In this document: positions 42,173-62,722 of the stretch, in pieces
Layout: every line of letters begins with the position of its first letter
Numbering within the stretch: position 1 is the first letter of the stretch
From: Escherichia phage Ecwhy_1
Reading direction: 5' to 3' (one strand)
Sequence record: MH791411.1
Length of the DNA: 64,000 nt
Notes under the pieces: generated by a model
What the model was told of the DNA's origin: nothing
What the model saw: only the letters and a program-made list of their open reading frames with translations
Database searches by the model: none
Made by a program: the position numbers and the translations under genes

Positions 42173-42544
42173 TTATAACATACGTTTTTTACGAATAGTA
42201 TTGTGGATATTTTTTAAGTAGTTCACACCTTTACACAACCCATAAAATACACCAGCACATACACCAAATGCAGGTATCATACATGCAAACATCGTTATCA
42301 ATTCCCACATCTCCATGCCATCTTGATTCGGTCCAAGGTCAAAGATAACAACCGAAACCAAACCTGTGATACTTAGCATATAATATGCCATGAAGATAAT
42401 AAAAGAAACAATACCAACGTCAGATTTTACTGAATTTAGCATATTATATACTGGGGTTACACAGAAGTAATACAATAACCAAATCAAAGAACCTAAACTA
42501 AACACAATAATAGTAATGATTGAAAATATTTCACGATAACTCAT
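42173..42544 (-). CDS. small polytopic membrane protein, tandem family (123 aa)
   Basis: Hydrophobic helices; basic C-terminus NTIRKKRML; SD GAGGG. Confidence 0.6.
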   Translation of the reverse strand: MSYREIFSIITIIVFSLGSLIWLLYYFCVTPVYNMLNSVKSDVGIVSFIIFMAYYMLSITGLVSVVIFDLGPNQDGMEMWELITMFACMIPAFGVCAGVFYGLCKGVNYLKNIHNTIRKKRML

Positions 42545-42545
42545 T

Positions 42546-42908
42546 TTAGTCCCTCGTGCCTAAACGCTCATGGATTTCGGAAATCTTATGATACATCCAC
42601 GCCAGCAACTCAACGGATGCACAGAGAATAACCACACACAGTGTTAGTGAACATACCATAATACCAAATGTTATAAAATTCGAACTCGATGTTAATAATG
42701 CAACCAGCATTAGAATAAAACCAAAATTGAATGCTGTACTCAACACAGTATATGCTGGACTATATCTCCTTTGTATTACATCATATATATTTGATAATGG
42801 TCGCTTATGGAAGTACTTCCCAATGCACACGAATGCATTCAGTGAGAAGATAAATGTATACGCCATTACCATTAATTGACCAATAAAAGATAATTCAATA
42901 TTATTCAT
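42546..42908 (-). CDS. small polytopic membrane protein, tandem family (120 aa)
   Basis: Hydrophobic helices; basic C-terminus; SD GAGGATAAC. Confidence 0.6.
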   Translation of the reverse strand: MNNIELSFIGQLMVMAYTFIFSLNAFVCIGKYFHKRPLSNIYDVIQRRYSPAYTVLSTAFNFGFILMLVALLTSSSNFITFGIMVCSLTLCVVILCASVELLAWMYHKISEIHERLGTRD

Positions 42909-42909
42909 G

Positions 42910-43281
42910 TTATCCTCGTTTGCGGTATTTGATGCTTTGGTGCATTCTCTGAAAATGTGGAACTAATACATATTGTACGGTTTGCCAAATTACCATCAGA
43001 TTATGGACAGCACCACCGAGTAGACCAAACACTACACAGATAATTGCCAGTACTGGATCACCATCTACCATACCCCATTTGAATATATGTAAAATCCATA
43101 CAGTGATAAGTAGTAATAAACTAATCCAATACGTAGTAAAAAATCCTGCATGTAATTCATAGTCATCAGCAATTTCATCGTATACGGTTTCCAAGAAGGA
43201 TACACAGAAGAACTTGCCAATAATAACAATTGTACTAATAAACAACATAGCAGTTAATATAATAAGTGCAATTTCCATCAC
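42910..43281 (-). CDS. small polytopic membrane protein, tandem family (123 aa)
   Basis: Hydrophobic helices; C-terminus KYRKRG; SD GAGGGATG. Confidence 0.6.
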   Translation of the reverse strand: MMEIALIILTAMLFISTIVIIGKFFCVSFLETVYDEIADDYELHAGFFTTYWISLLLLITVWILHIFKWGMVDGDPVLAIICVVFGLLGGAVHNLMVIWQTVQYVLVPHFQRMHQSIKYRKRG

Positions 43282-43592
43282 ATCCCTCGTTTACGCTTTT
43301 GATTGCGTCTAAATTCGGTTAGCCCACGAGTAATCGGTGGCATCAGACTACATAAAAAAATAACAGTTGTTGGTAATAACATGAAGTCAATCATTGCTGT
43401 ATTAACAGGTGGTTCACATATCAAATAATACAAGCAAGTAATACTAATTATGGTTGACCCAATAAAAGGAATACAAAATTCTTTTATCTGTTTTTCAACA
43501 TAATCAAACATCTTCAGTACAAATAAAAATCCAACCCAACACATAATAAAATAGAATGAATAAAGCGTGTAAATCAATGTTACGATATCCAT
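43278..43592 (-). CDS. small polytopic membrane protein, tandem family (104 aa)
   Basis: Hydrophobic helices; C-terminus RRNQKRKRGM; SD GAGG. Confidence 0.6.
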   Translation of the reverse strand: MDIVTLIYTLYSFYFIMCWVGFLFVLKMFDYVEKQIKEFCIPFIGSTIISITCLYYLICEPPVNTAMIDFMLLPTTVIFLCSLMPPITRGLTEFRRNQKRKRGM

Positions 43593-43930
43593 TAGTACCT
43601 CGCATCAGGAACTTTAGCACGTAATTTATGAACGACTGGGAACAACAACAAACTTACATATGCAATAGTTGAACCCCAATAGAATACTAATATAATTGGT
43701 TCACCATTGGAACGGAACCCTCTACTAATCATTGAGTAGTGAATAATTGGCATAATCATCGCCATACCAAACCATGCGTGTAATTTTAATTGCAACAGGT
43801 GTTCAGAGATGAATACTGAAATTGGTCGTTTGAAGAACCACATAAGAAAGTAGAATCCAGCACTAAGAATATAGTACATAATACTAACTTTCATATACCA
43901 CGGCAGTAAGTGTAAAAAATATTCCATCAT
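43592..43930 (-). CDS. small polytopic membrane protein, tandem family (112 aa)
   Basis: Hydrophobic helices; SD GGAGGAATG. Confidence 0.6.
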   Translation of the reverse strand: MMEYFLHLLPWYMKVSIMYYILSAGFYFLMWFFKRPISVFISEHLLQLKLHAWFGMAMIMPIIHYSMISRGFRSNGEPIILVFYWGSTIAYVSLLLFPVVHKLRAKVPDARY

Positions 43931-44274
43931 TCCTCCGGTATCTTGTTTCGAAGTTCAATCATAACACAACAAATTTTAATGGTCAAGTAAAAAACTACAC
44001 ATATCATACCCAATGTACCGTAAACTGCGGAGAATGCTGGCAGTACCTTTCCTGTGAGTGTTGCTACAATACATGCTATCAATGTTGATGCAAACAACGA
44101 TTGATTAATGAAAGAATTCATAAAATCTTCACCATTACGCTTATAGAATTGTCGTTTAAAATACCATCCTAGAAACATAACTACCCAAAATGTTACATAA
44201 CCTGTTAGAATAATCCCTGCAATTGAATGTGCAACAGAACTACTCTTTAAAAACTCAAGATAAGATTCAAACAT
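43927..44274 (-). CDS. small polytopic membrane protein, tandem family (115 aa)
   Basis: Hydrophobic helices; C-terminus ELRNKIPEE. Confidence 0.6.
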   Translation of the reverse strand: MFESYLEFLKSSSVAHSIAGIILTGYVTFWVVMFLGWYFKRQFYKRNGEDFMNSFINQSLFASTLIACIVATLTGKVLPAFSAVYGTLGMICVVFYLTIKICCVMIELRNKIPEE

Positions 44275-44612
44275 TAGAAGTCCCCACGAATTTTTGCTCT
44301 ACCATTAATGATGAGATTAAACAAGTATATCAGCACCCAAATTAGTAATCCAAGGAATACAATATATTGTGATATTGAGTTCAACTGTGGATTAGCACAA
44401 TAAATTAAGTGTGCGATAAGACCAACAATTGCAAACATACCTTGGATAATAGTGAAAAGAAGTAGTGAAATGTTTCCATCAGGATACAGTTTGAAAACGA
44501 TTTTCTTTTTAAAATACCATAGTACTACAACTAGTGCATGATAAAAGAAAAAACCAAACAGATAAATCAAAGTAATACTAAGCATTGTATCTGAATTAAA
44601 AAACTCAAGCAT
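44274..44612 (-). CDS. small polytopic membrane protein, tandem family (112 aa), first gene of operon
   Basis: SD CAGGAG; TTGACA promoter upstream. Confidence 0.6.
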   Translation of the reverse strand: MLEFFNSDTMLSITLIYLFGFFFYHALVVVLWYFKKKIVFKLYPDGNISLLLFTIIQGMFAIVGLIAHLIYCANPQLNSISQYIVFLGLLIWVLIYLFNLIINGRAKIRGDF

Positions 44613-49869: not shown

Positions 49870-49878
49870 ATTTTTTAA

Positions 49879-50130: not shown

Positions 50131-50158
50131 TTATCGCCTCACTTAATTAACGTGACAA

Positions 50159-50335
50159 TTAGTACGAATCAGATTCCCAGTACTCGATTGCTTCTTTCAG
50201 CAATTCTTTAGCACGTTGTTTTGCAATGCGAGCGGGTAACAGATATGTGTACATTAACTGACGCTTCACTTCATTCAGTGAAAGCTGTTCATGGTACAGT
50301 GCATCCATCAGTCGATTACGAGTACGTAGTTTCAT
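50159..50335 (-). CDS. hypothetical small protein (58 aa, not in track)
   Basis: SD AAGGATAAC; replaces overlapping + strand track ORF 50221-50424. Confidence 0.4.
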   Translation of the reverse strand: MKLRTRNRLMDALYHEQLSLNEVKRQLMYTYLLPARIAKQRAKELLKEAIEYWESDSY

Positions 50336-50346
50336 ATAAGTTATCC

Positions 50347-50901
50347 TTATTTCAAAGAATCATAGTAAGCAGTGTCAAAGATTGGAGTCATAATAACATA
50401 GTCAATACGGTCAATGTAAGTTGAACTCCACATTTCTGGTTTGTCATAAAATTGACGCTCGCGTTCATTCATACGAGTCAGTACTTCTTCCAATTTACTA
50501 CGTGAAGCCATCAATGTATTACGCGATCCATAAGTGAAGTACTCAGTCCATTGATATTCATATTCAGTACTGATAGATTGAATAGTACCATCTTTGAAAT
50601 GAGCTAAGGCATATCCTTTCTCTACAAAGTTATCAGGTGGAAGAACACTATCTGGATTAGTTTTCAATGCTTTGGTTAACTTTTCTTTAATTTCAGTTAA
50701 CGTGCATACTGAACGAATGTTCTTCAGGTTTGATACTTGAAAATCACTGTACTTTCCAAAGAAAAATACACGCCAATCTTTAGGTTCATTATCAGATACG
50801 GTAATATTCGGATGATGGGCGAGTAAACGAAGAAGGCCAGCTTTGTGACCGTTAATGTAGATCTCATGGATGTGGTTAGCAGTTTTCTTAAAAGTAATCA
50901 T
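50347..50901 (-). CDS. hypothetical protein (184 aa)
   Basis: ORF; SD GAGGAATTG; TTGACA-N17-TATAAT + hairpin GGGGATGAACTTCTCATCCCC. Confidence 0.65.
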   Translation of the reverse strand: MITFKKTANHIHEIYINGHKAGLLRLLAHHPNITVSDNEPKDWRVFFFGKYSDFQVSNLKNIRSVCTLTEIKEKLTKALKTNPDSVLPPDNFVEKGYALAHFKDGTIQSISTEYEYQWTEYFTYGSRNTLMASRSKLEEVLTRMNERERQFYDKPEMWSSTYIDRIDYVIMTPIFDTAYYDSLK

Positions 50902-50977
50902 GACAATTCCTCGATTGTGGGGATGAGAAGTTCATCCCCTTGATAAACATTATACAGTACTGAATGAGTTTGTCAAC

Positions 50978-51358
50978 TCAAAATAAATTCATTTCATGTG
51001 CGTATTGTGGTTCAAGATGCGATAAGTTTTTGAAGCTTTCTTTCAACTCAGCATCATCTACATACACCGTGCCTGGTACATTCCCCATAGTGAAACCTAC
51101 CCACACAGTCATGTCACCAGTCCCTAAGCGTGGCATTGATAGCGAACCATCAGGTGAAACATCAAACGCTACACTGAAGTCATCAGTAACAACGTCAGAA
51201 CCATTTTCGAGAATAATACATCCACTATCTTTAAGCTTCTGAATGTGGATAGCAGCCTCTACAGCACGTTTGAAGTTATAGTAAGACTCTTTATCCTCAA
51301 ACATTGATTGTTTAATCAGACGCTTGTTTAGCTCGGTTACTTTGTGCATTTGACGCAT
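50978..51358 (-). CDS. hypothetical protein (126 aa)
   Basis: ORF. Confidence 0.5.
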   Translation of the reverse strand: MRQMHKVTELNKRLIKQSMFEDKESYYNFKRAVEAAIHIQKLKDSGCIILENGSDVVTDDFSVAFDVSPDGSLSMPRLGTGDMTVWVGFTMGNVPGTVYVDDAELKESFKNLSHLEPQYAHEMNLF

Positions 51359-51615
51359 TACTTATCCATCTCCCACAGTTGTAGAATTTCATAAGAGCCT
51401 GGTGGTGCAGGATTCCTGATCTCAGGGAATTGAGTACTTTTAGGATTTCCACCAGCATTAAATTCGTCAAGTAATGATTCCAGTTCGCGACGATCCTGAA
51501 CAACATAAACACAATCACCTGAACCTTCTTCGAGAATCATTTCACTTCCTGCACAATCCCATACTATTGAGATACATAGAATCTCTTTTGTATTTTTATT
51601 ACGCAATGCAAACAT
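51358..51615 (-). CDS. hypothetical protein (85 aa)
   Basis: ORF; SD GGGGATTG; preferred over 51312-51518. Confidence 0.5.
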   Translation of the reverse strand: MFALRNKNTKEILCISIVWDCAGSEMILEEGSGDCVYVVQDRRELESLLDEFNAGGNPKSTQFPEIRNPAPPGSYEILQLWEMDK

Positions 51616-51624
51616 AGCAATCCC

Positions 51625-51993
51625 CTATCGATTTGGCATTTTATCTCGTAATTTCACAAGATAATCAATCACGGTACATCCTGAAATAAAGGTAATATAA
51701 GTACTGAAAAATCCTACCAGAATAAAGGCAACAAGCGTACTCCCATTTGGTTCTTCAGCTTTAATACCAATGATACCATCAGATGCAGTGAAAAATGTAG
51801 ACATAAACGTTAGACAGATGTACATCACTAATAAGAATTCATGTTCTAATGACGGATAAAAACGGTCAAAGAGTTTATAAAATTTAAAGTACAGTAGGAG
51901 TATACCAACAAAGGCATAGAAAGTAAACAGTGTTGTTATGATATATGATATTAAATTTAAATTATACATCTCAACGCTCCGGTAGATTATCAC
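51625..51993 (-). CDS. small polytopic membrane protein, second tandem cluster (122 aa)
   Basis: Hydrophobic helices; C-terminus KLRDKMPNR. Confidence 0.6.
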   Translation of the reverse strand: MIIYRSVEMYNLNLISYIITTLFTFYAFVGILLLYFKFYKLFDRFYPSLEHEFLLVMYICLTFMSTFFTASDGIIGIKAEEPNGSTLVAFILVGFFSTYITFISGCTVIDYLVKLRDKMPNR

Positions 51994-52318
51994 GTAATGT
52001 TTTGATTCGATTATACAATTTCATTGCTACATTTCCAAATAAACCAAAACCCATTACTAAAATGTATGCGATGAACATAGTAATAATCACAATAGTACCT
52101 AGACTGTAATGTACTGCACTAATACCCATTATTGTTTCTACAATGATGTGAGCAACAGAAATAATCAAAAGTACTACTACAATTGGATGATTTGGATACA
52201 TTCGGTTAAACAATGTTTTGTACTTAAAGAAGTACAGTACTCCACCAAATAAGAAGTACACAATGTAGATTGATGCAATAGCATAAGCAAAAGCATTAGT
52301 GTAGAAAATCATTATCAA
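51971..52318 (-). CDS. small polytopic membrane protein, second tandem cluster (115 aa)
   Basis: Hydrophobic helices; C-terminus TLRDNLPER. Confidence 0.6.
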   Translation of the reverse strand: MIMIFYTNAFAYAIASIYIVYFLFGGVLYFFKYKTLFNRMYPNHPIVVVLLIISVAHIIVETIMGISAVHYSLGTIVIITMFIAYILVMGFGLFGNVAMKLYNRIKTLRDNLPER

Positions 52319-52321
52319 TCC

Positions 52322-52660
52322 TTACTTTTCAGGGATTTTATCACGCCACTCATCAATACGATGAAGCAGTTTAAAGAGCAAAAATATCGGAACAGTAGCT
52401 ATCATAATGGCAATTGTTAGTAATGTCAACCCCGATACGAGATTTAATTCGTCAGTACTATATCCACATACCAGTGCTTCAATTATCCCCCACGTACATG
52501 CACAGAACATCATAAATGAAATGGGTGCATCGTAGTATATGCGTTGATACAAGGTTGTGTATCGGAAGAATGCAATAATGTAACAAAACATGTAATACAC
52601 CCAAATTAACGATACTACATAAAATGATACCTTATTAATTAATTCAAAATGTTGTTCCAT
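52322..52660 (-). CDS. small polytopic membrane protein, second tandem cluster (112 aa)
   Basis: Hydrophobic helices; C-terminus EWRDKIPEK. Confidence 0.6.
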   Translation of the reverse strand: MEQHFELINKVSFYVVSLIWVYYMFCYIIAFFRYTTLYQRIYYDAPISFMMFCACTWGIIEALVCGYSTDELNLVSGLTLLTIAIMIATVPIFLLFKLLHRIDEWRDKIPEK

Positions 52661-52670
52661 TTTTTTACCC

Positions 52671-52973
52671 CTACATATATTCTAAGAATAATGTATTAGC
52701 TTCGTCTATGTTCTTAAGATAATACATGTAATACAGATTTGGTTGTCCGTCTTTTGAACTCAAATCAAAGTACTTTAAACTATGCACCTTCATGACAAAA
52801 ACAAATAATGACTTAAAACCAATCTCACCGTACTTAATAAACAGTTCATCTAAATGAATGTAACTCTTAGTTTCAGATAATTCCTTCACATCAGCTTCAA
52901 TTTCTTGTAAGCGAAGTTTACCGATTAAGTTTTCAAATGAACGCATGATGTTGTTCCTTATGCTGGTACACAA
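52671..52973 (-). CDS. hypothetical protein (100 aa)
   Basis: ORF. Confidence 0.5.
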   Translation of the reverse strand: MCTSIRNNIMRSFENLIGKLRLQEIEADVKELSETKSYIHLDELFIKYGEIGFKSLFVFVMKVHSLKYFDLSSKDGQPNLYYMYYLKNIDEANTLFLEYM

Positions 52974-53371
52974 TTTTTTATAATGAATACACGTTTCATG
53001 AATGAACTTTCATATACGTACTTCAGTTTACCATTTTCACGCATACGATGAAACACATCTTTACCACTAGTACTCCATGTTGAACCAGTCTCTGCATCAA
53101 CATTGTTCATTACACCAGATGTTACGTTCACCCCGTACTTGAAGCTAAAGGTACTGCCTTCTTCTACTAGAGGGATTGGTGTACTACGTTCATGTTCCAG
53201 TACAAGTTTACTGCCGATGATGTTGTACGAAGTTAGCTTGCATTTTAAAACACCCATCTCTTGTGCAGTTGGGTAATTCTTCTCAAATAAATCAGATACT
53301 TCATTTGCATAACAAACTGAACTAATCATAAGAAGTAATGAACTGATAGAACGGAAAATAACTTTTAACAT
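52958..53371 (-). CDS. secreted protein (137 aa), predicted signal peptide
   Basis: N-terminus MLKVIFRSISSLLLMISSVCYA; SD GGAGGCAAAC. Confidence 0.6.
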   Translation of the reverse strand: MLKVIFRSISSLLLMISSVCYANEVSDLFEKNYPTAQEMGVLKCKLTSYNIIGSKLVLEHERSTPIPLVEEGSTFSFKYGVNVTSGVMNNVDAETGSTWSTSGKDVFHRMRENGKLKYVYESSFMKRVFIIKNCVPA

Positions 53372-53437
53372 GTTTGCCTCCAGTAGTTGATGAAATGATT
53401 ATAGCAAAAAGGGCCGACCGAAGTCAACCCTTTTCTT

Positions 53438-53788
53438 TTATATTTTACATGTCATGTCTGGTTTTGGCTTTTCATTCTTTGGCTTTTCAAATGGATTTGG
53501 CTTAGGGGACTTTTTATCTTTGTCATCTTTAGCTTTCTTTTTGTTTTCTTTTTTATCCGATTTGTCAGCTTTGTCTTTCTTATCTTTTGAATCTTTGTCA
53601 GCTTTAGATTGTGGTTCCTCACATACAGCAGTTTTTGGCTCCGGCATATCACATGAGTTATCCACAGGTTTAATGAACTCTTTACAGTTGTAGAAGTATA
53701 AACTTTCATTGGTAGTAAGATTGTGGAATCTAAAAGTATTTTCACCATTAGTATATACTTTCTTAGTACTCTCAATATCATTACACAT
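53438..53788 (-). CDS. hypothetical protein with Lys/Asp-rich low-complexity tail
   Basis: Track ORF begins at a GTG; first ATG used here; alternative frame 53452-53802 is also open. Confidence 0.35.
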   Translation of the reverse strand: MCNDIESTKKVYTNGENTFRFHNLTTNESLYFYNCKEFIKPVDNSCDMPEPKTAVCEEPQSKADKDSKDKKDKADKSDKKENKKKAKDDKDKKSPKPNPFEKPKNEKPKPDMTCKI

Positions 53789-53798
53789 TGCAACCGTG

Positions 53799-54050
53799 TC
53801 ACCGGAATTCACGCTCGATACCTAGTATATCCGACTTACGTTCAGATAGTATTCCAGACGTATATCGATCTTTGTTATCAAATGCATTGAACCCTATAGT
53901 TTTATAATTGTCATGTACCAATCCTCTAGTGTAAGACTTGGTATAGAACTCACCGTTTCTAAACTCCTGTCTAGCAATGGAGCACTGGTATTCAGTACTA
54001 TAAACTATATCAGTAAACAATACAAGTGAAAATAAAACATATTTAAACAT
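53799..54050 (-). CDS. secreted protein (83 aa), predicted signal peptide
   Basis: N-terminus MFKYVLFSLVLFTDIVYS; SD AGAGGTAATG. Confidence 0.55.
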   Translation of the reverse strand: MFKYVLFSLVLFTDIVYSTEYQCSIARQEFRNGEFYTKSYTRGLVHDNYKTIGFNAFDNKDRYTSGILSERKSDILGIEREFR

Positions 54051-54121
54051 TGCATTACCTCTTATAAAACCCTCTACAATATTTACAAAAAAAGGTTGAC
54101 CGAAGTCAACCTTTTAAATGT

Positions 54122-55633
54122 TTATTTTTTATCCTTTCCAACACCACGGTCGTACTCTTTGAATGAGTTATCAAGTGTAGTTAGTGCATACTCATATGCT
54201 TCTGGTGATTCAATGTCAACATCATCTGCACCATTTACTAAATCAGCCCAAGCCTTTTGAAGTTTACGAGCATTGTTACCAACATTATCTTTAATCCAAC
54301 TAATGTTTTTGTTGATACTTTTACTATCAGCACCTGCTTTTTTACCAATCTCGGATATCCACATCATTAGCTTTTGAAGTTCATGAATTGATTTATCGGT
54401 CATTTCAAGATGTTCTTCTTCCATACCTTCGGAATCAGATGAACCAACGTCAATTCCATGTTTAGCTAATAGTTTACCAAGTTCAAAGAATGCAGCTTCA
54501 GCAGGGAAGTCATAACCTTTGTCTTTATAGTTATTCCATGCACTATCAAACTCGTCAACAAAACGGTTAGCATAATCTGGATTTTTAACTAATGCTTTAT
54601 ATACTGCCATTGCATGTTCAAAACCTTCTTTATCTGACCCAAACTCTTCCATCTCAGGACGATGAATGTATCCATCCATATCAACGGTATCAGGTAGATC
54701 TTCTTGCTCAGGCTCAACATCTTTCTGTTCAACTGCACCTTCTTCATCTTTACGTAGTAGATATCCATCAGGTGTCACTTTCTCACCATGTTCTGCTTCA
54801 TACTTTTTCATAGTGTTGAATGCAGCATCCATAGCTGTTACGAAGCGACTTTTCTCACCTTGTACATAAGATTTAAGTGCACTGTTAACTGCATCTGATA
54901 CGAGCTTAACCTTATCATCTTTACCTTCTAAACGGTTTTCAAGTTTAGCCAGTACATTCTTGACTTGCTGGGCATTAGCACGTTCTGCTTTACCAATACT
55001 ATCAAAAATTTTAAGAATACCATCAAGACTTGCTTCACCCTGTTCAGGTTCTTTGGAATCTTCTTTGTGTGTACCTTCAAGTGCACGCATGATAGTACTG
55101 AATACTTCAGTAGGTTCAGTGCTCTTATTACCTTTCATTGCATCAAGTACAGCTTGTGCTTTACCTTTGAGTTCTTCTTTAGGAACTGCCTGTAGTGCTT
55201 TGACAATACCCTGAATCAACTGTGGTTTGTTAGCAAAGATCTTACCTAAGTTATCAGATAACTCTTTAACAGGGTTAGCAGCTTTAGGAGCTTCTGGTTT
55301 TGGTTCTTCTTTAGGAACTGCTTGTTCTTTCTCAGCACGTTCCATATCAGCAAGGCGTTGTTTCTGTGTTGCGTTAAGAAGACCTAATGAGTTAACATAA
55401 CGTAGCTTTTCTAGCTCAGTCATGTTCTCAGTACTCTTAACTTCACCTGCTTCTGCGTTTGCCTTACCAGCTAAACCTGTCCCTTGATTACGTGAACCAC
55501 GTGACCCCTGTCCTGCTTGGTAGCTATTTTGACGACGATTGCGTTCACTCCATTTATCAGAGTGACCTGCCATGTTCCCGCCATTTTTATCAGTAAATTG
55601 ACCTGGCATTTGATTTCTCTCCATAGATTTCAT
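54122..55633 (-). CDS. hypothetical protein (about 500 aa), G/N/Q/R-rich N-terminus
   Basis: ORF (start may be ATG at 55609 with SD GGAGAG); shares motif with 56481-56864. Confidence 0.65.
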   Translation of the reverse strand: MKSMERNQMPGQFTDKNGGNMAGHSDKWSERNRRQNSYQAGQGSRGSRNQGTGLAGKANAEAGEVKSTENMTELEKLRYVNSLGLLNATQKQRLADMERAEKEQAVPKEEPKPEAPKAANPVKELSDNLGKIFANKPQLIQGIVKALQAVPKEELKGKAQAVLDAMKGNKSTEPTEVFSTIMRALEGTHKEDSKEPEQGEASLDGILKIFDSIGKAERANAQQVKNVLAKLENRLEGKDDKVKLVSDAVNSALKSYVQGEKSRFVTAMDAAFNTMKKYEAEHGEKVTPDGYLLRKDEEGAVEQKDVEPEQEDLPDTVDMDGYIHRPEMEEFGSDKEGFEHAMAVYKALVKNPDYANRFVDEFDSAWNNYKDKGYDFPAEAAFFELGKLLAKHGIDVGSSDSEGMEEEHLEMTDKSIHELQKLMMWISEIGKKAGADSKSINKNISWIKDNVGNNARKLQKAWADLVNGADDVDIESPEAYEYALTTLDNSFKEYDRGVGKDKK

Positions 55634-55714
55634 ATTGTTTATTCTCTATGACTATATTTATAGTATAAAGAAAAGGTTGACCGAAGTCAACCCTATTTTC
55701 ACTGTACTATACCA

Positions 55715-56011
55715 TTAGTAGTTACAGTCAGCTTTCGCTGTGAATGTTTTACTTTCACCTCGTTGTGTGGTGATTCGTCCGAGTAAAGTAGTTTTGTCAA
55801 TAGTCATTGTAGTTAGTACTGGAACATTACCTTCAAAGTCAATAGCTTTGAAATTGTAGGTGGTTTCATTCTCCACTACACTTGGACCAAAGAGTTCATA
55901 TGTGTTGATTTCAAGTGTGTCACCATCTGAACGCAACAGTGTGCAGTCCAGATTAGGAGTAGCCAGTACTGGGAAAGCCAAAAACATCATCATTACAATA
56001 ATTAATTTCAT
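55715..56011 (-). CDS. secreted protein (98 aa), predicted signal peptide
   Basis: N-terminus MKLIIVMMMFLAFPVLA; SD CAGGAG. Confidence 0.6.
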   Translation of the reverse strand: MKLIIVMMMFLAFPVLATPNLDCTLLRSDGDTLEINTYELFGPSVVENETTYNFKAIDFEGNVPVLTTMTIDKTTLLGRITTQRGESKTFTAKADCNY

Positions 56012-56271
56012 TTCACTTCTCCTGTTTTTTTCTTAGGATCAACCAATGACCAAATGAAGAATCCGAGAATTACAAGTACCCACAGAATCATGATAAAGAA
56101 AGCGAACAGTACAATAGTGTTTGTCAAAAAGAAATACAATAGAATGTTCGACCCAATACTACATACAATCAATGCAGCTTCATGTTTAACAACACGAATG
56201 GCTGTAATGAGTGCAGGAAGAAATCCGACAAATAACAGTACTAACGCATATAGTGATAATGTTTCAGCCAT
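56008..56271 (-). CDS. small membrane protein (87 aa)
   Basis: Hydrophobic helices; SD AAGGGATATC. Confidence 0.55.
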   Translation of the reverse strand: MAETLSLYALVLLFVGFLPALITAIRVVKHEAALIVCSIGSNILLYFFLTNTIVLFAFFIMILWVLVILGFFIWSLVDPKKKTGEVK

Positions 56272-56480
56272 GATATCCCTTATTTGGTTTGTTCAAAACT
56301 AGGTGTATTGATATAGGTGTCAATTGAATAACATACTGTACCCACTACAACAGCAGCGATTAGGGCAGCGATGATGAATTTAGTACCTTGCATAATTTAA
56401 TACCTCACGTTGTTTGTATTTTGTATCACTTGATGAAAATATTATACGACAAAGGGCTGACTGAAGTCAACCCCTTTTAA

Positions 56481-56864
56481 TTATTTTTTAAACTTATGTT
56501 TTTCGCCTTCAATAGAGTTCACGATGTCATCATGAATCTTGCGAAGGTTATGAGTTTTCTTTAGTGCTTCATGTAGTGCACGGAATGCTGCGTGTACTGT
56601 TGCCTTGAAGTGCTCTTTAGGAGTCACTTTAAGTTTCTCAATGATATCACGTACATAAATTGGATGATCTTCAAATACACGATTCAATTCATGGCCTAGT
56701 GATTCTAAACTGAAAGCTTTTTCGCGTGAAGGACGATCATGTGCAAGACTTTGGTCAGGCTTTAGTAGACCTAGTGAATCAAGATACTTATGCTTATGTG
56801 CATTATCAATTCCAGAAATATCCACATCATGCGATGGATCTTTCTTATTCCATTTATCAACCAT
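56481..56864 (-). CDS. hypothetical protein (127 aa), related to N-terminal part of 54122-55633
   Basis: Shared Y-x-(N/D)-SLGLL motif; SD AAGGAGTATG. Confidence 0.6.
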   Translation of the reverse strand: MVDKWNKKDPSHDVDISGIDNAHKHKYLDSLGLLKPDQSLAHDRPSREKAFSLESLGHELNRVFEDHPIYVRDIIEKLKVTPKEHFKATVHAAFRALHEALKKTHNLRKIHDDIVNSIEGEKHKFKK

Positions 56865-56975
56865 TTCATACTCCTTAAAGAGATAAATTACTTTAATATT
56901 TATACTTCATGTGCTGTTTATTTCAACAGACACTTAAGATTATATCACATATGAAATGGTTGTTCCAAAGTCAAA

Positions 56976-57419
56976 TCAGTACTGTTTAAGTTCTGAACTG
57001 AAGATAAAGGAATCCATATCTTCTAGTGTTAACTTCAAGTTCGGTGTGTACTTTAATATCACACATTCAGGTTTCTTAATGGCAGCTTGATAGGCAGCAA
57101 TTGCCAACTGTTGAAGCTGCTCTGGTGTGTAGTTCATGCGTTCTGCATTGAATACGATGTTCTTAATATCACCACCTGGCAGCTTCTCAAACTCACGCAT
57201 AACAGCAGCCATCACATCATCAGATGTATTCTTATAAGCCCAATGAGGTAGTTGCATAACGTCATAAATCTCGCCATTGTCGTTCATAAGAGAGATCCAT
57301 TTTTTACCGTCCGATGAACTAAACAGACGACCTTTAATAGCAATGTTCTCTACCAAATTAACAAAGGCAAATATGTCTTGCTCATTTAGTTCAATGCTAT
57401 TAACGTTAATCCAACCCAT
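56976..57419 (-). CDS. hypothetical protein (147 aa)
   Basis: Trimmed to MGWINV start with SD GGAG. Confidence 0.55.
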   Translation of the reverse strand: MGWINVNSIELNEQDIFAFVNLVENIAIKGRLFSSSDGKKWISLMNDNGEIYDVMQLPHWAYKNTSDDVMAAVMREFEKLPGGDIKNIVFNAERMNYTPEQLQQLAIAAYQAAIKKPECVILKYTPNLKLTLEDMDSFIFSSELKQY

Positions 57420-57432
57420 ACTACATCTCCAG

Positions 57433-58005
57433 TTATAAATCACGAACGACATTCATTAAACACAATTTGGGCTTTATCGCATTCAAAACCCATATGCATT
57501 CTTTGTAAGTTGCTATTATAGCATCTAAATGCTCAGTTACAATGCTTTCTTGAAAATATTCTTCTTCATTGAGCTTTGCTAAATTAGTCACATCACATGT
57601 AGGTACTATAGGTCTGGATTGTACACCCATTCCATTATTGATATTGGTAAAATGTAAAAAATTGTACTTCACCACACCGTTATCTACACTTATGATACAT
57701 GTCAAATGTTCCAACTCAGTTAGTTCGGTATTACAAGTGACATGAATGAATCCAGCATTATAGGCTCTATAATCATCTACTAATATCTCAAAATCATTAC
57801 GTTTAAATATAAGTGAAATGAGTTTGTCTTGTGGTTTAACCTTCTGAAATTTTACCGAATTTACGTATGATACTTTAATCTTAGATGAAATTATCTTTTT
57901 ACTAAGTGCAGTTAATTCTTCTTTAGCCTTAAAAGTTAAAGTTATAGGTCTAAATCTAGAACTTTTGTTCTTCTTTGATACTTTGAACTTACCTTTTCTA
58001 TTCAT
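57433..58005 (-). CDS. hypothetical basic protein (190 aa)
   Basis: ORF; terminator hairpin and SD upstream. Confidence 0.6.
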   Translation of the reverse strand: MNRKGKFKVSKKNKSSRFRPITLTFKAKEELTALSKKIISSKIKVSYVNSVKFQKVKPQDKLISLIFKRNDFEILVDDYRAYNAGFIHVTCNTELTELEHLTCIISVDNGVVKYNFLHFTNINNGMGVQSRPIVPTCDVTNLAKLNEEEYFQESIVTEHLDAIIATYKECIWVLNAIKPKLCLMNVVRDL

Positions 58006-58019
58006 TAATTAAACCCCAC

Positions 58020-58052
58020 ATAAAGTAAAAGGGTTGGAATAATACCAACCCT
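58020..58052 (-). terminator. intrinsic terminator
   Basis: Hairpin GGGTTGG-TATTATTCC-AACCC + TTTTACTTT on - strand. Confidence 0.5.
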
Positions 58053-58059
58053 ATATCTT

Positions 58060-58296
58060 TTATTTTTTAATAGATTCATAAAGCAGAAACAACCAAATAA
58101 ACATTGATGAACAAACTACTACTGGGATTAATGTAAATTCAGTAAAGAATAAAAGTATTCCATAAGTTAGTATGCAACATAAGTTTACGTACATAATTGC
58201 TTCTGCATTTTTATTTTTCATTTTATATGCAATGAATGTTGGTGACCACATTACCAAAAATGCAAACAACGCACATATGATGATTATAGTTTCCAT
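58060..58296 (-). CDS. small membrane protein (78 aa)
   Basis: Hydrophobic helices; SD GGAGGTG. Confidence 0.55.
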   Translation of the reverse strand: METIIIICALFAFLVMWSPTFIAYKMKNKNAEAIMYVNLCCILTYGILLFFTEFTLIPVVVCSSMFIWLFLLYESIKK

Positions 58297-58366
58297 ATTA
58301 CACCTCCGTAAAATAATGTTCTGTACTGCTATTATTTACAGAGAATATCTGAAAAATTGATCTAGA

Positions 58367-58591
58367 TCAATTTTTAGTCACTTTACAATTTGAATCTTTT
58401 TTGTACTGAACAATCACATTGTTCTTAAGGAAGATGATGGTCCCATAGGAACCTTGGGCTGCAACTTCAACAATATGGTTCTTATATGTTTCAGTATATC
58501 CTTCCATCTCGTTGATACACACTACATGATACTTTGGTTTAGCACATACAACAGTACTCAAGAATAGCAGTACTAGTACTAGATATTTCAT
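58367..58591 (-). CDS. secreted protein (74 aa), predicted signal peptide
   Basis: N-terminus MKYLVLVLLFLSTVVCA; SD AAGGTAATAA. Confidence 0.55.
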   Translation of the reverse strand: MKYLVLVLLFLSTVVCAKPKYHVVCINEMEGYTETYKNHIVEVAAQGSYGTIIFLKNNVIVQYKKDSNCKVTKN

Positions 58592-58641
58592 TTTATTACC
58601 TTATAAACAAGAACAGGAATCCTTTTACGGATTCCTATAAT

Positions 58642-58935
58642 TTAGTCCTTTAATGTACCATTGTGTAAACGATTATACACATCATTGCGACGCAACTCAA
58701 CAATATCTTCAGCGTACTTCATTGTAAACGCCCATGCTTTTGGATGCACATTAAGCTTCATACGAATGCGATTCTTCATCAATTCACCGCTTAGGCGAAC
58801 AAACTCATGAACACCACGACTTCCGTACTCTGAAATCAAATCATTGATGTACATGTTGCGAAGGGTTTCGTCTGTACATTCTTTAACCATTTCTACGTCT
58901 GCCACGATGCTTGCATTTACTGAAGTACTGATCAT
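58642..58935 (-). CDS. hypothetical protein (97 aa)
   Basis: ORF; SD AAGGTAAC. Confidence 0.55.
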   Translation of the reverse strand: MISTSVNASIVADVEMVKECTDETLRNMYINDLISEYGSRGVHEFVRLSGELMKNRIRMKLNVHPKAWAFTMKYAEDIVELRRNDVYNRLHNGTLKD

Positions 58936-58946
58936 TTTAAGTTACC

Positions 58947-59213
58947 TTATTTGAATTGGACTGTAATTTTATCACCTTCAACTACGAACTTACAGTCGTA
59001 GCGACGGGCCATATCCATATACATATGCTCAGAATACCACGGAACATCAATAACTGGATGCTCTGCGTATTGTAGCACTTCACGGTCACCAACAGTAGTG
59101 ATGACGAAAGGAATGTTCATCTCTCGCAAAAACAACTCGGCACCTGGTGAACGATTGACAAACTCAGTGTCGTTACGCAAAGTAAAACCATTGTATTGTA
59201 ATTTAAGCTTCAT
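58947..59213 (-). CDS. hypothetical protein (88 aa)
   Basis: ORF; SD AGAGGATAATC. Confidence 0.55.
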   Translation of the reverse strand: MKLKLQYNGFTLRNDTEFVNRSPGAELFLREMNIPFVITTVGDREVLQYAEHPVIDVPWYSEHMYMDMARRYDCKFVVEGDKITVQFK

Positions 59214-59227
59214 GATTATCCTCTAAG

Positions 59228-59572
59228 TTAATACCATTCTTTTAAACCATCAAGTTCGGCTATGTGAGTAATTATAACACAGATAACACTCAGGTCAAGC
59301 ATTATTTGCTCATAATTTAATTTTATTCTATCATCACTGTATGCTCTAAAAACAACATCAAAGTCAAAGTAGTTATCGTTTTCATCATTCATTGGAATGA
59401 TTCTATATCTACGTCTACCATCATCATTGAATACAGTCAAACATTGTTTGAATTTCTTCATTAACTGTGTAGTCAATGCATTGTAATATGCAACATCATA
59501 TTGTGTACAACGTGGGTCATTGGGTAGATAAAACGATACAAATTTTTTTAATTCTATTTGAGTCTTATCCAT
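59228..59572 (-). CDS. hypothetical protein (about 114 aa)
   Basis: Trimmed to MDKTQI start with SD GAGG. Confidence 0.5.
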   Translation of the reverse strand: MDKTQIELKKFVSFYLPNDPRCTQYDVAYYNALTTQLMKKFKQCLTVFNDDGRRRYRIIPMNDENDNYFDFDVVFRAYSDDRIKLNYEQIMLDLSVICVIITHIAELDGLKEWY

Positions 59573-60005
59573 ATACAGCCTCATGTATTACTCTTTTACT
59601 TTGGCGGTACTCATCCTTTGCTTCTCTCACTGACATGATACGAACCAGATTGGCACTACCACAATAGTACTGAACCTGACTACGACCAATGTCAACATGA
59701 TTATCAGGAACTTCATATACTGATACAGCAAACCCTGCACGATGTAATTTACCCAAGTCCATAGTAAAGAACTTAAACAAATCATTCAAACTCTGACAGC
59801 CAAATGCCCAGCCACGTTTGATTGAATAGATTCCATCTTCAGTTGGTTCTGGTTGGAATTGCGAAGGCGTGGTCATGCACAAACGGTCAAATCCATTTTT
59901 AGTACTGTATCGTGAAGAGTACCGTGCGAACGGCCCTACTGTTTTTGCTGGATCTAAGTTAGGTTCAATATAACTGAATTTAAGTTCAAAACGATATACG
60001 TACAT
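59565..60005 (-). CDS. hypothetical protein (146 aa)
   Basis: ORF; SD GGGGATTTTAAT; terminator-promoter hairpin upstream. Confidence 0.6.
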   Translation of the reverse strand: MYVYRFELKFSYIEPNLDPAKTVGPFARYSSRYSTKNGFDRLCMTTPSQFQPEPTEDGIYSIKRGWAFGCQSLNDLFKFFTMDLGKLHRAGFAVSVYEVPDNHVDIGRSQVQYYCGSANLVRIMSVREAKDEYRQSKRVIHEAVYG

Positions 60006-60060
60006 AATTAAAATCCCCAGTAGTTGATGAAATAATTATAACAAAAAAGGTTGACCGAAG

Positions 60061-60252
60061 TCAACCTTTATTTTGAAGTTCTTGAACTAATTGTCGTACT
60101 TCTTTGATGTTATGACACTGCTTTACAGTGAAGTAATCATACTTACGACCATAGGTTCTTGGATCATCACCTTCCATATACTGCTGCACATCAAAGATTT
60201 GTAAGTAGGGATGCTGCATAACACGAATGTTACCACATTGATAAATCAACAT
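60061..60252 (-). CDS. hypothetical small protein (about 63 aa)
   Basis: Track ORF begins at a GTG; trimmed to ATG with SD GAGGA. Confidence 0.45.
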   Translation of the reverse strand: MLIYQCGNIRVMQHPYLQIFDVQQYMEGDDPRTYGRKYDYFTVKQCHNIKEVRQLVQELQNKG

Positions 60253-60256
60253 ATGT

Positions 60257-60607
60257 TTAGTCCTCATATTTACACAAGCCACCGAATGTTGCCTGTTTTG
60301 CTGCCTTACGCATCATCACAAGTTTAACATACTGTTCGCCATTACTTTCTTCATATACATCAACTTGAAGAAATGCAAGCATATTGGGATCAGTATCGTT
60401 CGAGTACTGCGTAAAACTAATGTCACCTACAGTATGTTCTTTAACAAAATTATACACTTCACCATCGATATAAACGATAGTATGGTCATCGCTATCACCT
60501 TGGTAAATGTGTTTAATATCACCTTCAGTACAGACTAGTCCAGGTAATGGTTCTGCATAAGACATACCACATATAATCATACAAACAAAAAACAAAATTA
60601 CTTTCAT
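60257..60607 (-). CDS. secreted protein (116 aa), predicted signal peptide
   Basis: N-terminus MKVILFFVCMIICGMSYA; SD AAAGGAAAC. Confidence 0.6.
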   Translation of the reverse strand: MKVILFFVCMIICGMSYAEPLPGLVCTEGDIKHIYQGDSDDHTIVYIDGEVYNFVKEHTVGDISFTQYSNDTDPNMLAFLQVDVYEESNGEQYVKLVMMRKAAKQATFGGLCKYED

Positions 60608-60987
60608 GATTTGTTTCCTTTGGATAAAATGGATTTCTTCACTTTGTACTGCTTGTAGTTATTATACCAAACATCGATTACATAAATCAAGTACCAAAGT
60701 GATGGATATAATGATAGACCAATAAAAACTGAAAAAATACTTGTATTAATAAAACCAATACAGTGCAGTGTAAATGCAACGATTAGAATACCAATCGTAA
60801 TCATACTAGCTGAATATGGTACGCTATCAGATGCGAACCATGAATCAACCTTACTAATTAAAGTATACTTCCCAGTACTAACAGCATAAACAATTGCTAC
60901 TATACCAAATAATGCCATTGAAATAGTTATTACTGAGTTAATAAGAATCGGAGTAATTAATACATAAAGCATTACATCGTTTATCAT
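60604..60987 (-). CDS. small polytopic membrane protein (127 aa)
   Basis: Hydrophobic helices; SD AAGGTATAAC. Confidence 0.6.
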   Translation of the reverse strand: MINDVMLYVLITPILINSVITISMALFGIVAIVYAVSTGKYTLISKVDSWFASDSVPYSASMITIGILIVAFTLHCIGFINTSIFSVFIGLSLYPSLWYLIYVIDVWYNNYKQYKVKKSILSKGNKS

Positions 60988-60997
60988 TTGTTATACC

Positions 60998-61363
60998 TTA
61001 AAGTTCACAATGAATATTCAATTTATCAATATCCTGATCGCGTTTGTTCGACGAATCTTGATAAATGACTATGTAAATATCCCCATCCTTTGTCTTGGGG
61101 TCCACTATCAATATTACATTTGCTATTATACCAGCATCTGATTTATATGTCGATACCTTTTTATTCCCAATCAAACTCTCGGCCCTGAAACGGTAAACCT
61201 CATTATCTACGACAATATTGTTTCCATTTTGTGGGTCATTAGAAAGTACATGCCATGTTCCATCGTTTCCCATACAATCAAGGTAAGCAGGTACGGCTGT
61301 ACTGAACCTTGAATAAAGCATGAATACTACAAACACCATTATCATTCTTATATATTTTTTCAT
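60998..61363 (-). CDS. secreted protein (about 121 aa), predicted signal peptide
   Basis: Trimmed to MKKYIRMIMVFVVF start with SD AGAGG. Confidence 0.55.
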   Translation of the reverse strand: MKKYIRMIMVFVVFMLYSRFSTAVPAYLDCMGNDGTWHVLSNDPQNGNNIVVDNEVYRFRAESLIGNKKVSTYKSDAGIIANVILIVDPKTKDGDIYIVIYQDSSNKRDQDIDKLNIHCEL

Positions 61364-61441
61364 TATAACCTCTAACGAGCAATACTTCTGCACATATTAT
61401 TTGTACAGAAGTATTTAATACTATTAGAGACTTTTTGAACG

Positions 61442-61768
61442 TTACTTCTTACTAGTTAGTTTATCTTTCAAGATATCAAACCAAATGGAAACTTTACCAG
61501 CAAACAATGCATTAGTAAACCACACAATACCAACAATGTTCTCAACTAAATTCATAATTGAAACAAATGGTCCAATTGGTAATACAAAACTTACTAACCA
61601 TGACAGTACTGAAATAAGTACTACAACGAAGAAGATTCGTACAATGGGTGAGTCTAACATAAACAACTCACGAAACTCATCACGCTCGGTTTCGTCTTTA
61701 ATGAAGAATTCGAAAACCATAACCCATAACAGAATTAGAGCAGGAATTGAAATTAGAACTGATAACAT
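61442..61768 (-). CDS. small polytopic membrane protein (108 aa)
   Basis: Hydrophobic helices; SD GAGGATATAA. Confidence 0.6.
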   Translation of the reverse strand: MLSVLISIPALILLWVMVFEFFIKDETERDEFRELFMLDSPIVRIFFVVVLISVLSWLVSFVLPIGPFVSIMNLVENIVGIVWFTNALFAGKVSIWFDILKDKLTSKK

Positions 61769-61826
61769 GTTTTATATCCTCAAGTTTAAGTGTTAAGTTT
61801 CAGACTACAAGAACCATTATACAGTA

Positions 61827-62069
61827 CTACAAACGTTTGTCAACAGGTTTTTCTTCAATAAGCATAAGATAACTGAAGACGAATAGTAATACAGATGCCA
61901 TATCAATAACCGTAAAGCTCACGGGAATGATAATAGACACTAGAATGAGTGCCACGTTTAGCAAGAATACAGTAGTGATATCCACCAGCTTTCGTTTAGT
62001 GGCTACTGCTACTAGTGTAGGGTAGAACATAAACAATAATGCAACTACAAAACTCAATACTAGATACAT
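61827..62069 (-). CDS. small membrane protein (80 aa)
   Basis: Hydrophobic helices; SD AAGGTGAAAA. Confidence 0.55.
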   Translation of the reverse strand: MYLVLSFVVALLFMFYPTLVAVATKRKLVDITTVFLLNVALILVSIIIPVSFTVIDMASVLLFVFSYLMLIEEKPVDKRL

Positions 62070-62722
62070 TTCTTTTTCACCTTAAGAAAATTATAACATA
62101 AAACAACCTCAACATCTGGCTCATCATACAAGTACTCAAAGCGTTCTTTACTACGCTTAGTACCGATGTACTCACCATTCTTATGCCAACGCCACCCACC
62201 ACTCTCTGGTTGGTCAGACTTCAGTACTGGATGATAGCACATGACAATTTCTTCTGGACCTTCAATAAGGTTCTTGTACTTCGTCAAAATCTGTTCAAGC
62301 GTATCTGCTACACCATAAGACGAGTGCATAAGATAAGACTCAGGACGTGGACGACCACTTGGTAGAATGTCATCAGTACTATTAAAGATAGCACGGAAGT
62401 CTTCTGACGTGTATAAACTTCCATCTTCATGGATCATTGGATACTCATCTACTACATCATAATCAGTGAAGTGTTCAATCGCATGTCCTGGTCTGTAACC
62501 TGCGAGGATACCTGTATGTTTCGTCTGTACAATAGTCATAACAGATGTACTATTGTTTACATTAGGATCATGAATTTCAGCCCAAAAAGGATGATGAGGA
62601 TCAAATTTAGCATTAACTAAAGTACAATCACCAATGTAGTCGAAATTAGTTTCTTTAAAGTTCAAAGAAACACCACGCAATGCCCAATCAGGAGAAGTGA
62701 TGAAATTAAGATTAACTAACAT
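62060..62722 (-). CDS. hypothetical protein (220 aa)
   Basis: ORF; SD GAGGATAC; TTGACA..GATATAAT upstream. Confidence 0.65.
   Translation of the reverse strand: MLVNLNFITSPDWALRGVSLNFKETNFDYIGDCTLVNAKFDPHHPFWAEIHDPNVNNSTSVMTIVQTKHTGILAGYRPGHAIEHFTDYDVVDEYPMIHEDGSLYTSEDFRAIFNSTDDILPSGRPRPESYLMHSSYGVADTLEQILTKYKNLIEGPEEIVMCYHPVLKSDQPESGGWRWHKNGEYIGTKRSKERFEYLYDEPDVEVVLCYNFLKVKKKCI

Follow-up and report, generated by a model that had tools for sequence, protein, structure and literature searches.

We analysed a 64,000-nucleotide stretch of the genome of Escherichia phage Ecwhy_1 (sequence record MH791411.1; this whole stretch is called the window below) and found that its right arm, at 52900-62100, is a variable, cassette-built block with early-type promoters that is devoted to exported and inner-membrane proteins. 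We call the exported proteins S1 to S6 and the membrane proteins M1 to M5, together with the small M1b. The block may serve to remodel the envelope early in infection, chiefly to exclude superinfecting phages, a reading that we hold at slightly under an even chance and in which exclusion is the presumed activity. We know of no account of how RaK2-like jumbo coliphages, the group to which this phage belongs, handle superinfection, nor of an identified holin in them. RaK2-like jumbo phages have been proposed for therapy, and if the units described here confer exclusion, the behaviour of cocktails containing these phages would be affected. Regions of this kind are known from T4-like phages, and ours is an orderly description rather than a surprise; it yields testable units, namely one five-gene module common to Escherichia and Klebsiella phages, three variable slots, and one tiny family of exported barrels with a confident structural model.

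The original prediction, made from the sequence alone, had described 52958-61768 as dominated by small secreted and membrane proteins, and had suggested for them superinfection exclusion, lipoprotein mimicry or lysis modulation. We scored signal peptides with a von Heijne-type heuristic (a short n-region with basic residues, then 8-17 uncharged residues as the h-region, and small residues at -3 and -1) and transmembrane (TM) segments as non-overlapping 19-residue windows with a mean Kyte-Doolittle hydropathy of at least 1.6. All six proteins claimed to carry signal peptides have a basic n-region, an h-region of 10-17 residues and a small -3/-1 cleavage site, and the five claimed to be polytopic each contain two or three hydrophobic 19-mers at or above that hydropathy; rules of this type do find signal peptides and TM segments, the two things whose absence the original prediction had named as telling against it. 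A 37-residue single-TM protein at 56280-56393, M1b, had been missed. With it, 12 of the 22 genes in 52900-62100 encode signal-peptide proteins (six) or proteins with one to three TM segments (six), and the same rules flag 12/24 genes in 42150-52700 and a single gene among the 82 in 1-42150 (Fisher p = 4e-11 for the right 22 kb versus the left 42 kb; p = 5e-5 for the interval originally named versus 1-52700). The concentration is therefore real, but it starts at about 42.2 kb, some 10 kb before the start first proposed at 52.9 kb, and it is not a matter of base composition, the left arm being just as AT-rich. That about half of the genes are envelope-targeted is well supported by prediction, conservation and selection. 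The suggestion of lipoprotein mimicry did not survive: none of the six exported proteins matches the lipobox pattern [LVI][ASTVI][GAS]C, and the cysteine (Cys) inside the S4 signal peptide is not conserved.

The window comes from an Asteriusvirus jumbo coliphage of the RaK2-like group. The interval 52900-62100 matches nine complete Escherichia jumbo-phage genomes, in each case over at least 87% of the interval; seven of the nine are at least 99% identical to it (vB_Ec-M-J, 99.5%; fEgEco12, 99.3%), and PBECO4, 121Q and G17 are 81-85% identical. We compared syntenic loci gene by gene in PBECO4, JNE01 and Klebsiella phage RaK2. Rightward of about 42.2 kb, all genes in the window lie on the minus strand, as do all features of the block and its control elements given below. 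Nearly all of the genes here are hypothetical in public records, the exceptions being a few labels: two "virion structural" (54122-55609 and 56481-56864), two "immunity to superinfection", one "membrane protein" and one "lytic conversion lipoprotein". The literature on Sharanji, fEgEco12 and RaK2 and a 2026 review of jumbo phages hold nothing on the envelope genes beyond the label given to S2 in fEgEco12. The protein families are uncharacterised and restricted to the RaK2-like group: a homologue search of an index of 5.8e9 proteins returned seven relatives for S6, eight for S5 and four for S3, so few that no bacterial relatives are usable for inference, and searches of PDB sequences with profiles of S1, S2, S3, S5/S6 and a neighbouring 220-residue protein gave nothing below E = 0.25.

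The six exported proteins have mature domains of 57-115 residues and, in five cases, a common cysteine layout. They are S1 (52958..53371, 137 residues, predicted cleavage CYA↓NE), S2 (53799..54050, 83 residues, VYS↓TE), S3 (55715..56011, 98 residues, VLA↓TP), S4 (58367..58591, 74 residues, VCA↓KP), S5 (60257..60607, 116 residues, SYA↓EP) and S6 (60998..61363, 121 residues, STA↓VP); S2 and S4 match PHROG 28901 and PHROG 31284, respectively, both of unknown function. The signal peptide of S2 is weak in the window and canonical in its PBECO4 orthologue (AYG↓AD), and the S5 site appears among orthologues as SYA↓EP, VYA↓EP, SFA↓EP, SYS↓AP and AHA↓EP, and in RaK2 as ARA↓EL. S1, S3, S4, S5 and S6 each have an invariant cysteine shortly past the cleavage site (22 residues past it in S1) and another 2-6 residues from the C terminus, the pairs being Cys44/Cys134 in S1, Cys23/Cys96 in S3 and Cys25/Cys69 in S4 and lying near the two termini in S5. 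This is the layout expected of periplasmic proteins with a disulfide joining both ends, and in these five of the six it would allow such a bond between the termini. S6 is a paralogue of S5 (blastp E = 8e-5), with which it has in common the invariant cysteine pair and a D, a Y, a G and a V, and an exhaustive HMMER profile search of 1.84e9 representative proteins places their family in just 11 clusters at 50% identity. Profile-profile comparison finds no similarity among S1, S3 and S5/S6, so that the exported proteins do not form a single detectable family, although they have the cysteine-pair layout in common. In the record of phage CRJP21 (locus L008, 2501-2851 and 4519-4740) the S5 orthologue is annotated as a "structural protein" and a 73-residue S4 orthologue as a "protein kinase"; these look like automated mislabels, and we found no paper that supports them.

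The membrane proteins are predicted to lie in the inner membrane and are interleaved with the exported ones. M1 (56008..56271, 87 residues, three TM segments) is lineage-specific, occurring in just 8 phage records that are all at least 95% identical; M1b (56280..56393) is the first gene of the unit M1b-M1-S3 and is 59% identical to its PBECO4 orthologue; M2 (58060..58296, 78 residues, three TM segments) carries the motif SPTFIAYKMKNKNAEA in its first TM segment (TM1), is found in 11 phage records and is followed by a terminator-like hairpin at 58052-58030. M3 (60604..60987, 127 residues, three TM segments, basic C terminus) matches PHROG 31707, and M4 (61442..61768, 108 residues, two TM segments in the window and three in orthologues), the first gene of the unit M4-S6-M3-S5, matches PHROG 31401, both of unknown function. 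M5 (61827..62069, 80 residues, three TM segments) has FYPTLVAVATKRK in TM1 and overlaps by 10 nucleotides the upstream gene of the 220-residue protein (62060..62722), a non-membrane protein whose function is unknown and whose gene comes first in the conserved module; this protein matches PHROG 18298 and has no match in Pfam, PDB sequences or NCBIfam.

The gene order 220-residue protein-M5-M4-S6-M3-S5 is identical in PBECO4, JNE01 and RaK2 (ORF262-267). Identity to RaK2 is 46% for the 220-residue protein (ORF262), 42% for M5 (ORF263), 41% for S6, 24% for M3 and 41% for S5, and M4, which has no tblastn match in RaK2, is represented in its position by ORF264, of 107 residues against 108. M5-M4-S6-M3-S5 is one module, common to Escherichia and Klebsiella phages. 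S6 and S5 each directly follow a polytopic membrane gene, and the ends of M3 and M1 overlap the starts of S5 and S3, respectively, by 4 nucleotides. The remaining units, M1b-M1-S3, S4-M2, S2 and S1, fill slots whose content varies between close relatives. The slot flanked by the two virion genes holds M1b-M1-S3 in the window, M1b only in PBECO4 and S3 only in JNE01 (S3 occurs in 10 phage records in all), and between genes for 97- and 190-residue proteins the window and JNE01 have S4-M2 and PBECO4 has S4 only, the S4 homologue of JNE01 being 30% identical in the same slot.

Wherever an orthologue exists in PBECO4, JNE01 or RaK2, the ratio of nonsynonymous to synonymous divergence (dN/dS) is 0.05-0.42 (0.23-0.32 for S1, which is 43-56% identical to its PBECO4 and JNE01 orthologues), and the orthologues, at 24-86% identity, keep the -3/-1 sites, the cysteine pairs and the TM counts. 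We take these to be real genes because dN/dS is well below 1 and these features are kept. One might instead regard them as functionless hydrophobic reading frames that arise by chance in AT-rich DNA, given that they are short, have a GC content of 33-38% and lack family matches; the retention of cleavage sites, cysteine pairs and TM counts as far as RaK2, the selection on the sequences, their own promoters, and the single gene flagged among 82 in the left-hand DNA leave that account effectively refuted and its probability negligible.

The envelope genes evolve about three times faster than their neighbours, with a mean dN against PBECO4 of 0.27 versus 0.083 (p = 3e-4) and a mean protein identity of 65% versus 85%. 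Their synonymous divergence changes abruptly from gene to gene: S1, S2, M1b, S5, M3 and S6 have dS values from 1.5 to above 3 or at saturation (M3 is 24-43% identical to its orthologues, with dN 0.54 and saturated dS), and a virion gene, the gene for a 63-residue protein beside S5, M5 and the gene for the 190-residue protein have dS of only 0.13-0.27. Such discontinuity means old, divergent envelope-gene alleles in a closely related backbone, and points to cassette exchange rather than to faster drift alone as the probable cause.

The envelope genes form short units, and each unit has a host-type sigma70 promoter close to consensus. The window has 37 matches to TTGACA-N16-18-TATAAT at 11 or more of 12 positions, where 4.6 are expected; almost all are on the coding strand and 27-58 nucleotides 5' of a start codon. 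A perfect sigma70-type promoter (TTGACA-16-TATAAT, 61816..61843) lies 48 nucleotides upstream of M4 and is kept in position in PBECO4 (12/12), JNE01 (11/12) and RaK2 (11/12). A hairpin, GGTTGACTTCGGTCAACC (consensus GGTTGAC-TTCG-GTCA(A/G)CC), occurs in nine copies with two or fewer mismatches where none is expected, all on the coding strand (minus strand; 11409, 45493, 47131, 48938, 53412, 54094, 55675, 56455 and 60049). Its 5' arm contains a TTGACT -35 hexamer, and most copies overlap a TTGACT-18-TATAAT promoter. The copies bound the units: one with a T-run and such a promoter closes M4...S5 (60049..60066) as a putative terminator/promoter, variants fused to promoters precede M1b-M1-S3 (promoter 56470-56441, element 56441..56472) and S1 (promoter 53427-53398, element 53398..53429), and further copies follow S3 (55675..55692) and separate a virion gene from S2 (54094..54111). 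Promoter-early stem-loop (PeSL) cassettes have been described from the hyperplastic regions of T4-like phages (PMC2839356, PMC4122927). The elements here have the features of PeSL cassettes, a repeated stem-loop with a T-run fused to an early sigma70-type promoter and flanking small variable genes whose content differs between relatives; they differ from them in belonging to the RaK2-like lineage and in a hairpin sequence, GGTTGACTTCGGTCAACC, that places the -35 hexamer inside the stem.

A second motif separates the envelope genes from the virion genes among which they lie. The T4-type late motif TATAAATA is depleted in the window as a whole (3 sites versus 13.7 +/- 3.9 expected), and its three sites lie 46 nucleotides before the gene of the 495-residue virion protein (at 55662-55655, after the hairpin that follows S3), 33 nucleotides before that of the 127-residue virion protein, and at 26846, before the first of an array of genes resembling regulator of chromosome condensation (RCC1). 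Within the envelope-gene interval it marks only the two virion genes. This suggests that the sites are T4-type late promoters, with selection against the motif elsewhere, and by analogy with T4 host RNA polymerase would transcribe the envelope genes as early or middle genes, and the virion genes lying between them would be late. The interspersion of the virion genes 54122-55609 and 56481-56864 among the envelope genes might also be read as a sign that the latter encode membrane-associated morphogenesis factors. T4 gp40, whose annotation is that of a membrane-associated assembly initiator, plays such a part for the head vertex, and the membrane proteins here would likewise help neighbouring virion proteins to assemble at the inner membrane. 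We think this very improbable: the promoter classes differ, TATAAATA standing before the virion genes only, and the virion genes persist at 94-97% identity in close relatives from which M1, S3 and M2 are absent.

What, then, might the membrane and exported proteins do? The first helix of M5, M2 and M1 reads aromatic-x-P-T/A-L/F-I/V-A followed by a basic loop, and T4 Imm has YMLPWFIALMRGSK at the equivalent place. When the three proteins are pooled into one profile and compared with T4 Imm by hhalign, the probability is 69.5% and the score 29.3; block-shuffled Imm sequences (n = 60) score 12.2 +/- 2.4 with a maximum of 19, so that 0/60 reach 29.3, and control membrane proteins (M3, M4 and a trio of three-TM proteins encoded just outside the block) give probabilities of 0.1-0.6% and scores of 8.5-13.6. 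Against Pfam PF14373 (Imm_superinfect), M2 scores 15.7 bits (E = 0.014), short of the gathering score of 27.9, and M1, M5 and their orthologues have no match to this family. The likeness to T4 Imm consists of a membrane protein of about 80 residues, the TM1 pattern aromatic-x-P-x-hydrophobic-hydrophobic-A with its basic loop (YMLPWFIALMRGSK in T4, FYPTLVAVATKRK in M5, WSPTFIAYKMKNK in M2) and, for M1, a position behind an early-type promoter; the differences are three predicted TM segments instead of two, the Pfam score below gathering and similarity that is weak beyond TM1. M1 is labelled "immunity to superinfection" in vB_Ec-M-J, where Pfam gives no Imm match; with a pooled Imm signal and a sub-threshold Pfam score, that label is a plausible lead rather than an established assignment.

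Structural models were made for two exported proteins, S5 and S3, and both are small up-and-down beta-barrels, that of S5 being confident and that of S3 less reliable. The AlphaFold2 model of mature S5, from a 14-sequence alignment, has eight strands, a predicted local distance difference test score (pLDDT) of 85.6 and a predicted template modelling score (pTM) of 0.76; for S3 the five models range in pLDDT from 82 to 34 and do not agree with one another, and the structure matches are generic. S5 is accordingly modelled as a small calycin-type barrel with a terminal cysteine pair. As in the lysozyme inhibitors MliC and PliC, the modelled S5 is an exported, eight-stranded antiparallel beta-barrel with cysteines near both termini, and by one method it is the lysozyme-inhibitor barrel that it most closely resembles. 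In a Foldseek search of PDB, the first match of the S5 model is the lipocalin-fold protein Tp0751 (E ~0.01), and PliC is not among the matches listed.

Could S5 and S6 be periplasmic inhibitors of peptidoglycan hydrolases, analogous to T4 Spackle or to MliC/PliC/PhiA (Pfam PF09864) and directed at the tail lysozyme of a superinfecting phage, a host autolysin or the phage's own endolysin? This would be a specific version of the exclusion and remodelling reading, and we consider it unlikely. Membership of S5/S6 in the MliC/PliC family was tried and rejected by motif, profile and Foldseek tests: the contact motifs ISxSGAxY and WxKGxxA, invariant in 2f09, 3f6z and 4mir, are absent from all 14 S5/S6 sequences, hhalign of the S5/S6 profile against that of MliC gives 0.25% probability, no Pfam match is found at E <= 0.1, sequence identity is 3-9%, and Foldseek does not return the family. 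S5 is thus not a demonstrable member, and small eight-stranded barrels are common and have many functions. MliC and PliC inhibit C-type (GH22) lysozymes, not GH24 enzymes, and the RaK2-like group carries a gp5-like spike with a GH24 lysozyme domain, located in fEgEco12 at residues 765-882 of g332. T4 produces early on a periplasmic protein, Spackle (Sp, gp61.3), which acts as an inhibitor of the gp5 tail lysozyme (PMC7677548). S5 and S6 resemble it as small, predicted Sec-exported periplasmic proteins, presumably made early, for which a phage spike lysozyme domain is a possible target, and differ from it in having no sequence relationship and in S5 being modelled confidently, and S3 less reliably, as all-beta. 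The published structure of T4 Spackle is reportedly alpha-helical.

For S2, the published lead is to another exclusion protein. S2 appears in the fEgEco12 paper as a "lytic conversion lipoprotein", on the strength of an HHpred match to the T5 lipoprotein Llp (8A60_B; probability 94.5%, E 0.18), and Llp is a small, disulfide-containing exclusion protein (PMC9586334). On these grounds one or more of the exported proteins might bind an outer-membrane receptor, block adsorption and shield progeny from debris, as Llp does. We judge such receptor masking to be improbable, since the exported proteins have no lipobox and so no Llp-like anchoring in the outer membrane, HMMER finds no similarity to Llp, and S2 has one conserved cysteine. 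In detail, S2 reads EYQC and its PBECO4 orthologue AYG↓ADYHC; neither has a lipobox, and a defining feature of Llp is therefore missing. An hmmsearch of the S2 profile against all PDB sequences at E <= 10 returns no Llp. The likeness that remains is that of a small exported phage protein proposed for exclusion, with a published HHpred match that is marginal, and the differences are the lack of a lipobox or acylated cysteine, of HMMER similarity and of more than one conserved cysteine. Two public annotations thus fall short, "immunity to superinfection" because it is sub-threshold and "lytic conversion lipoprotein" because it is without a defining feature of that family.

Lysis modulation, the third of the functions originally suggested, is somewhat disfavoured. 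It would have M5-M4-S6-M3-S5 contain the holin and/or antiholin of RaK2-like phages, with proteins of two or three TM segments and charged C termini forming the membrane lesion and the periplasmic proteins modulating its timing. The RaK2 paper identified no holin or antiholin (PMC3622015), the sole "holin" label in fEgEco12 is a weak HHpred match elsewhere in the genome (E 2.6), M3 and M4 are holin-like in size, TM number and basic C termini, and the module is conserved across genera. Small size with two or three TM segments and a charged C terminus is found in M1, M2 and M5 as well as in M3 and M4, and is generic for small inner-membrane proteins. The proteins match no holin family at E <= 0.1 in Pfam, nor one in PHROGs; there is no lysozyme gene in the window and no spanin gene nearby, the fEgEco12 lysozymes lying at ~118 kb and ~185 kb; S1-S6 have no lipobox, as an o-spanin would; and the M4 unit lies behind a perfect sigma70-type promoter that is conserved, with none of the late motif seen at the neighbouring virion genes. 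We therefore give lysis control a low probability, though not a negligible one.

Among the three functions originally suggested, superinfection exclusion is plausibly the best fit, on indirect evidence: early sigma70-type promoters in place of TATAAATA, the weak Imm-like motif in TM1, and a cassette-like makeup with rapid divergence. We favour early envelope remodelling, and exclusion in particular, for four reasons: T4 offers precedents in Imm and Spackle, both of them envelope proteins made early (PMC7677548), a weak Imm-like signal is present, periplasmic inhibitors make use of the S5 fold, and divergent alleles in a conserved backbone are expected of genes with a part in phage-phage or phage-host specificity. 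In outline, soon after infection the proteins would be inserted into or exported across the inner membrane and would alter the envelope of the infected cell, most likely so as to exclude superinfecting phages. Imm-like membrane proteins may block genome transfer across the inner membrane, and the periplasmic barrels may bind a component of the incoming phage or a host envelope protein.

Several findings weigh against this. Scans of 20 proteins against Pfam, PHROGs, NCBIfam and PADLOC yielded solely PHROGs of unknown function and sub-threshold matches, and none of the proteins attains the cut-off of a family whose function is known. Taken singly against T4 Imm, M5, M1 and M2 reach hhalign probabilities of 21%, 7% and 2%, and most of the Imm similarity lies in a single TM helix. 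For S5, the preference of Foldseek for a lipocalin-fold protein, the missing MliC motifs, the hhalign result against MliC and the GH22 specificity of MliC/PliC all count on this side too. The tail lysozyme is 92.9% identical to that of PBECO4, where S5 is 78% and S6 62% identical, so there is no sign of co-divergence. The promoter class is read by analogy with T4, and a module kept in genera that infect different hosts might just as well act at a core step in the cycle of the phage itself. A more far-reaching proposal is that M4-S6-M3-S5 together with M5 is a previously unrecognised conserved envelope module, in which S5/S6 form a new structural class of periplasmic inhibitor, MliC/PliC-like in fold, unrelated to Spackle or Llp and with polytopic partners, that controls superinfection or lysis; we regard it as a long shot.

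Outside the block, the enrichment to the left of 52.9 kb includes two runs of three-TM proteins on the minus strand: three tandem paralogues of 112-114 residues at 51625..52660, the trio used as a control above, and seven tandem proteins of 104-123 residues at 42173..44612, which are distantly related to the trio (hhalign probability 88%) and end in the C-terminal motif LRxK[IVM]P[ED]. The ten appear to be one divergent family; examples of their C-terminal motif are LRNKIPEE, WRDKIPEK and LRDKMPNR. Within the block, the two virion structural proteins (495 and 127 residues, minus strand) have a common domain (blastp E 7e-7), both match PHROG 16530 and PHROG 20398, and, being 94-97% identical to their PBECO4 counterparts, they rank with the best-conserved proteins of the block. 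A 124-residue protein at 53438-53812 (minus strand), whose gene overlaps the end of S2 by 14 nucleotides, has a long lysine/aspartate-rich low-complexity tail (KADKDSKDKKDKADKSDKKENKKKAKDDKDKK...), and public records disagree on its start codon. In the RaK2 locus (L005, ~7630-7890), the 286 bp left as a "gap" between ORF263 and ORF264 can be read as a small, unannotated open reading frame with a DksA/TraR-type C4 zinc-finger pattern, CTDCGDEIPEKRRAVLSGVKRCVKCQSK.

In the left part of the window, at 1-19000 (minus strand), many of the small genes have a perfect or near-perfect TTGACA-16/17-TATAAT of their own 30-58 nucleotides upstream (~20 promoters at 11/12 or better), and the stretch resembles a classical early region in which every gene has its promoter. 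The sole signal-peptide protein of the left 42 kb, of 99 residues at 15419-15718 (minus strand; MKIAIIALALSVSSFAVNA↓SLD), stands isolated there among cytoplasmic early genes. Two families of tiny tandem paralogues of 59-75 residues, with nine and four members by blastp and many starting M..(K)E(F)Y...KL, occupy 22167-26774 (minus strand) and directly precede the RCC1-like array. That array, at 26881-42136 (plus strand), comprises thirteen tandem paralogues of ~370-400 residues, one of them split at 32918/33066, all of which begin MLPF(V/A)R(M/L)(F/V)(D/K)YGN and are annotated "regulator of chromosome condensation" in vB_Ec-M-J.

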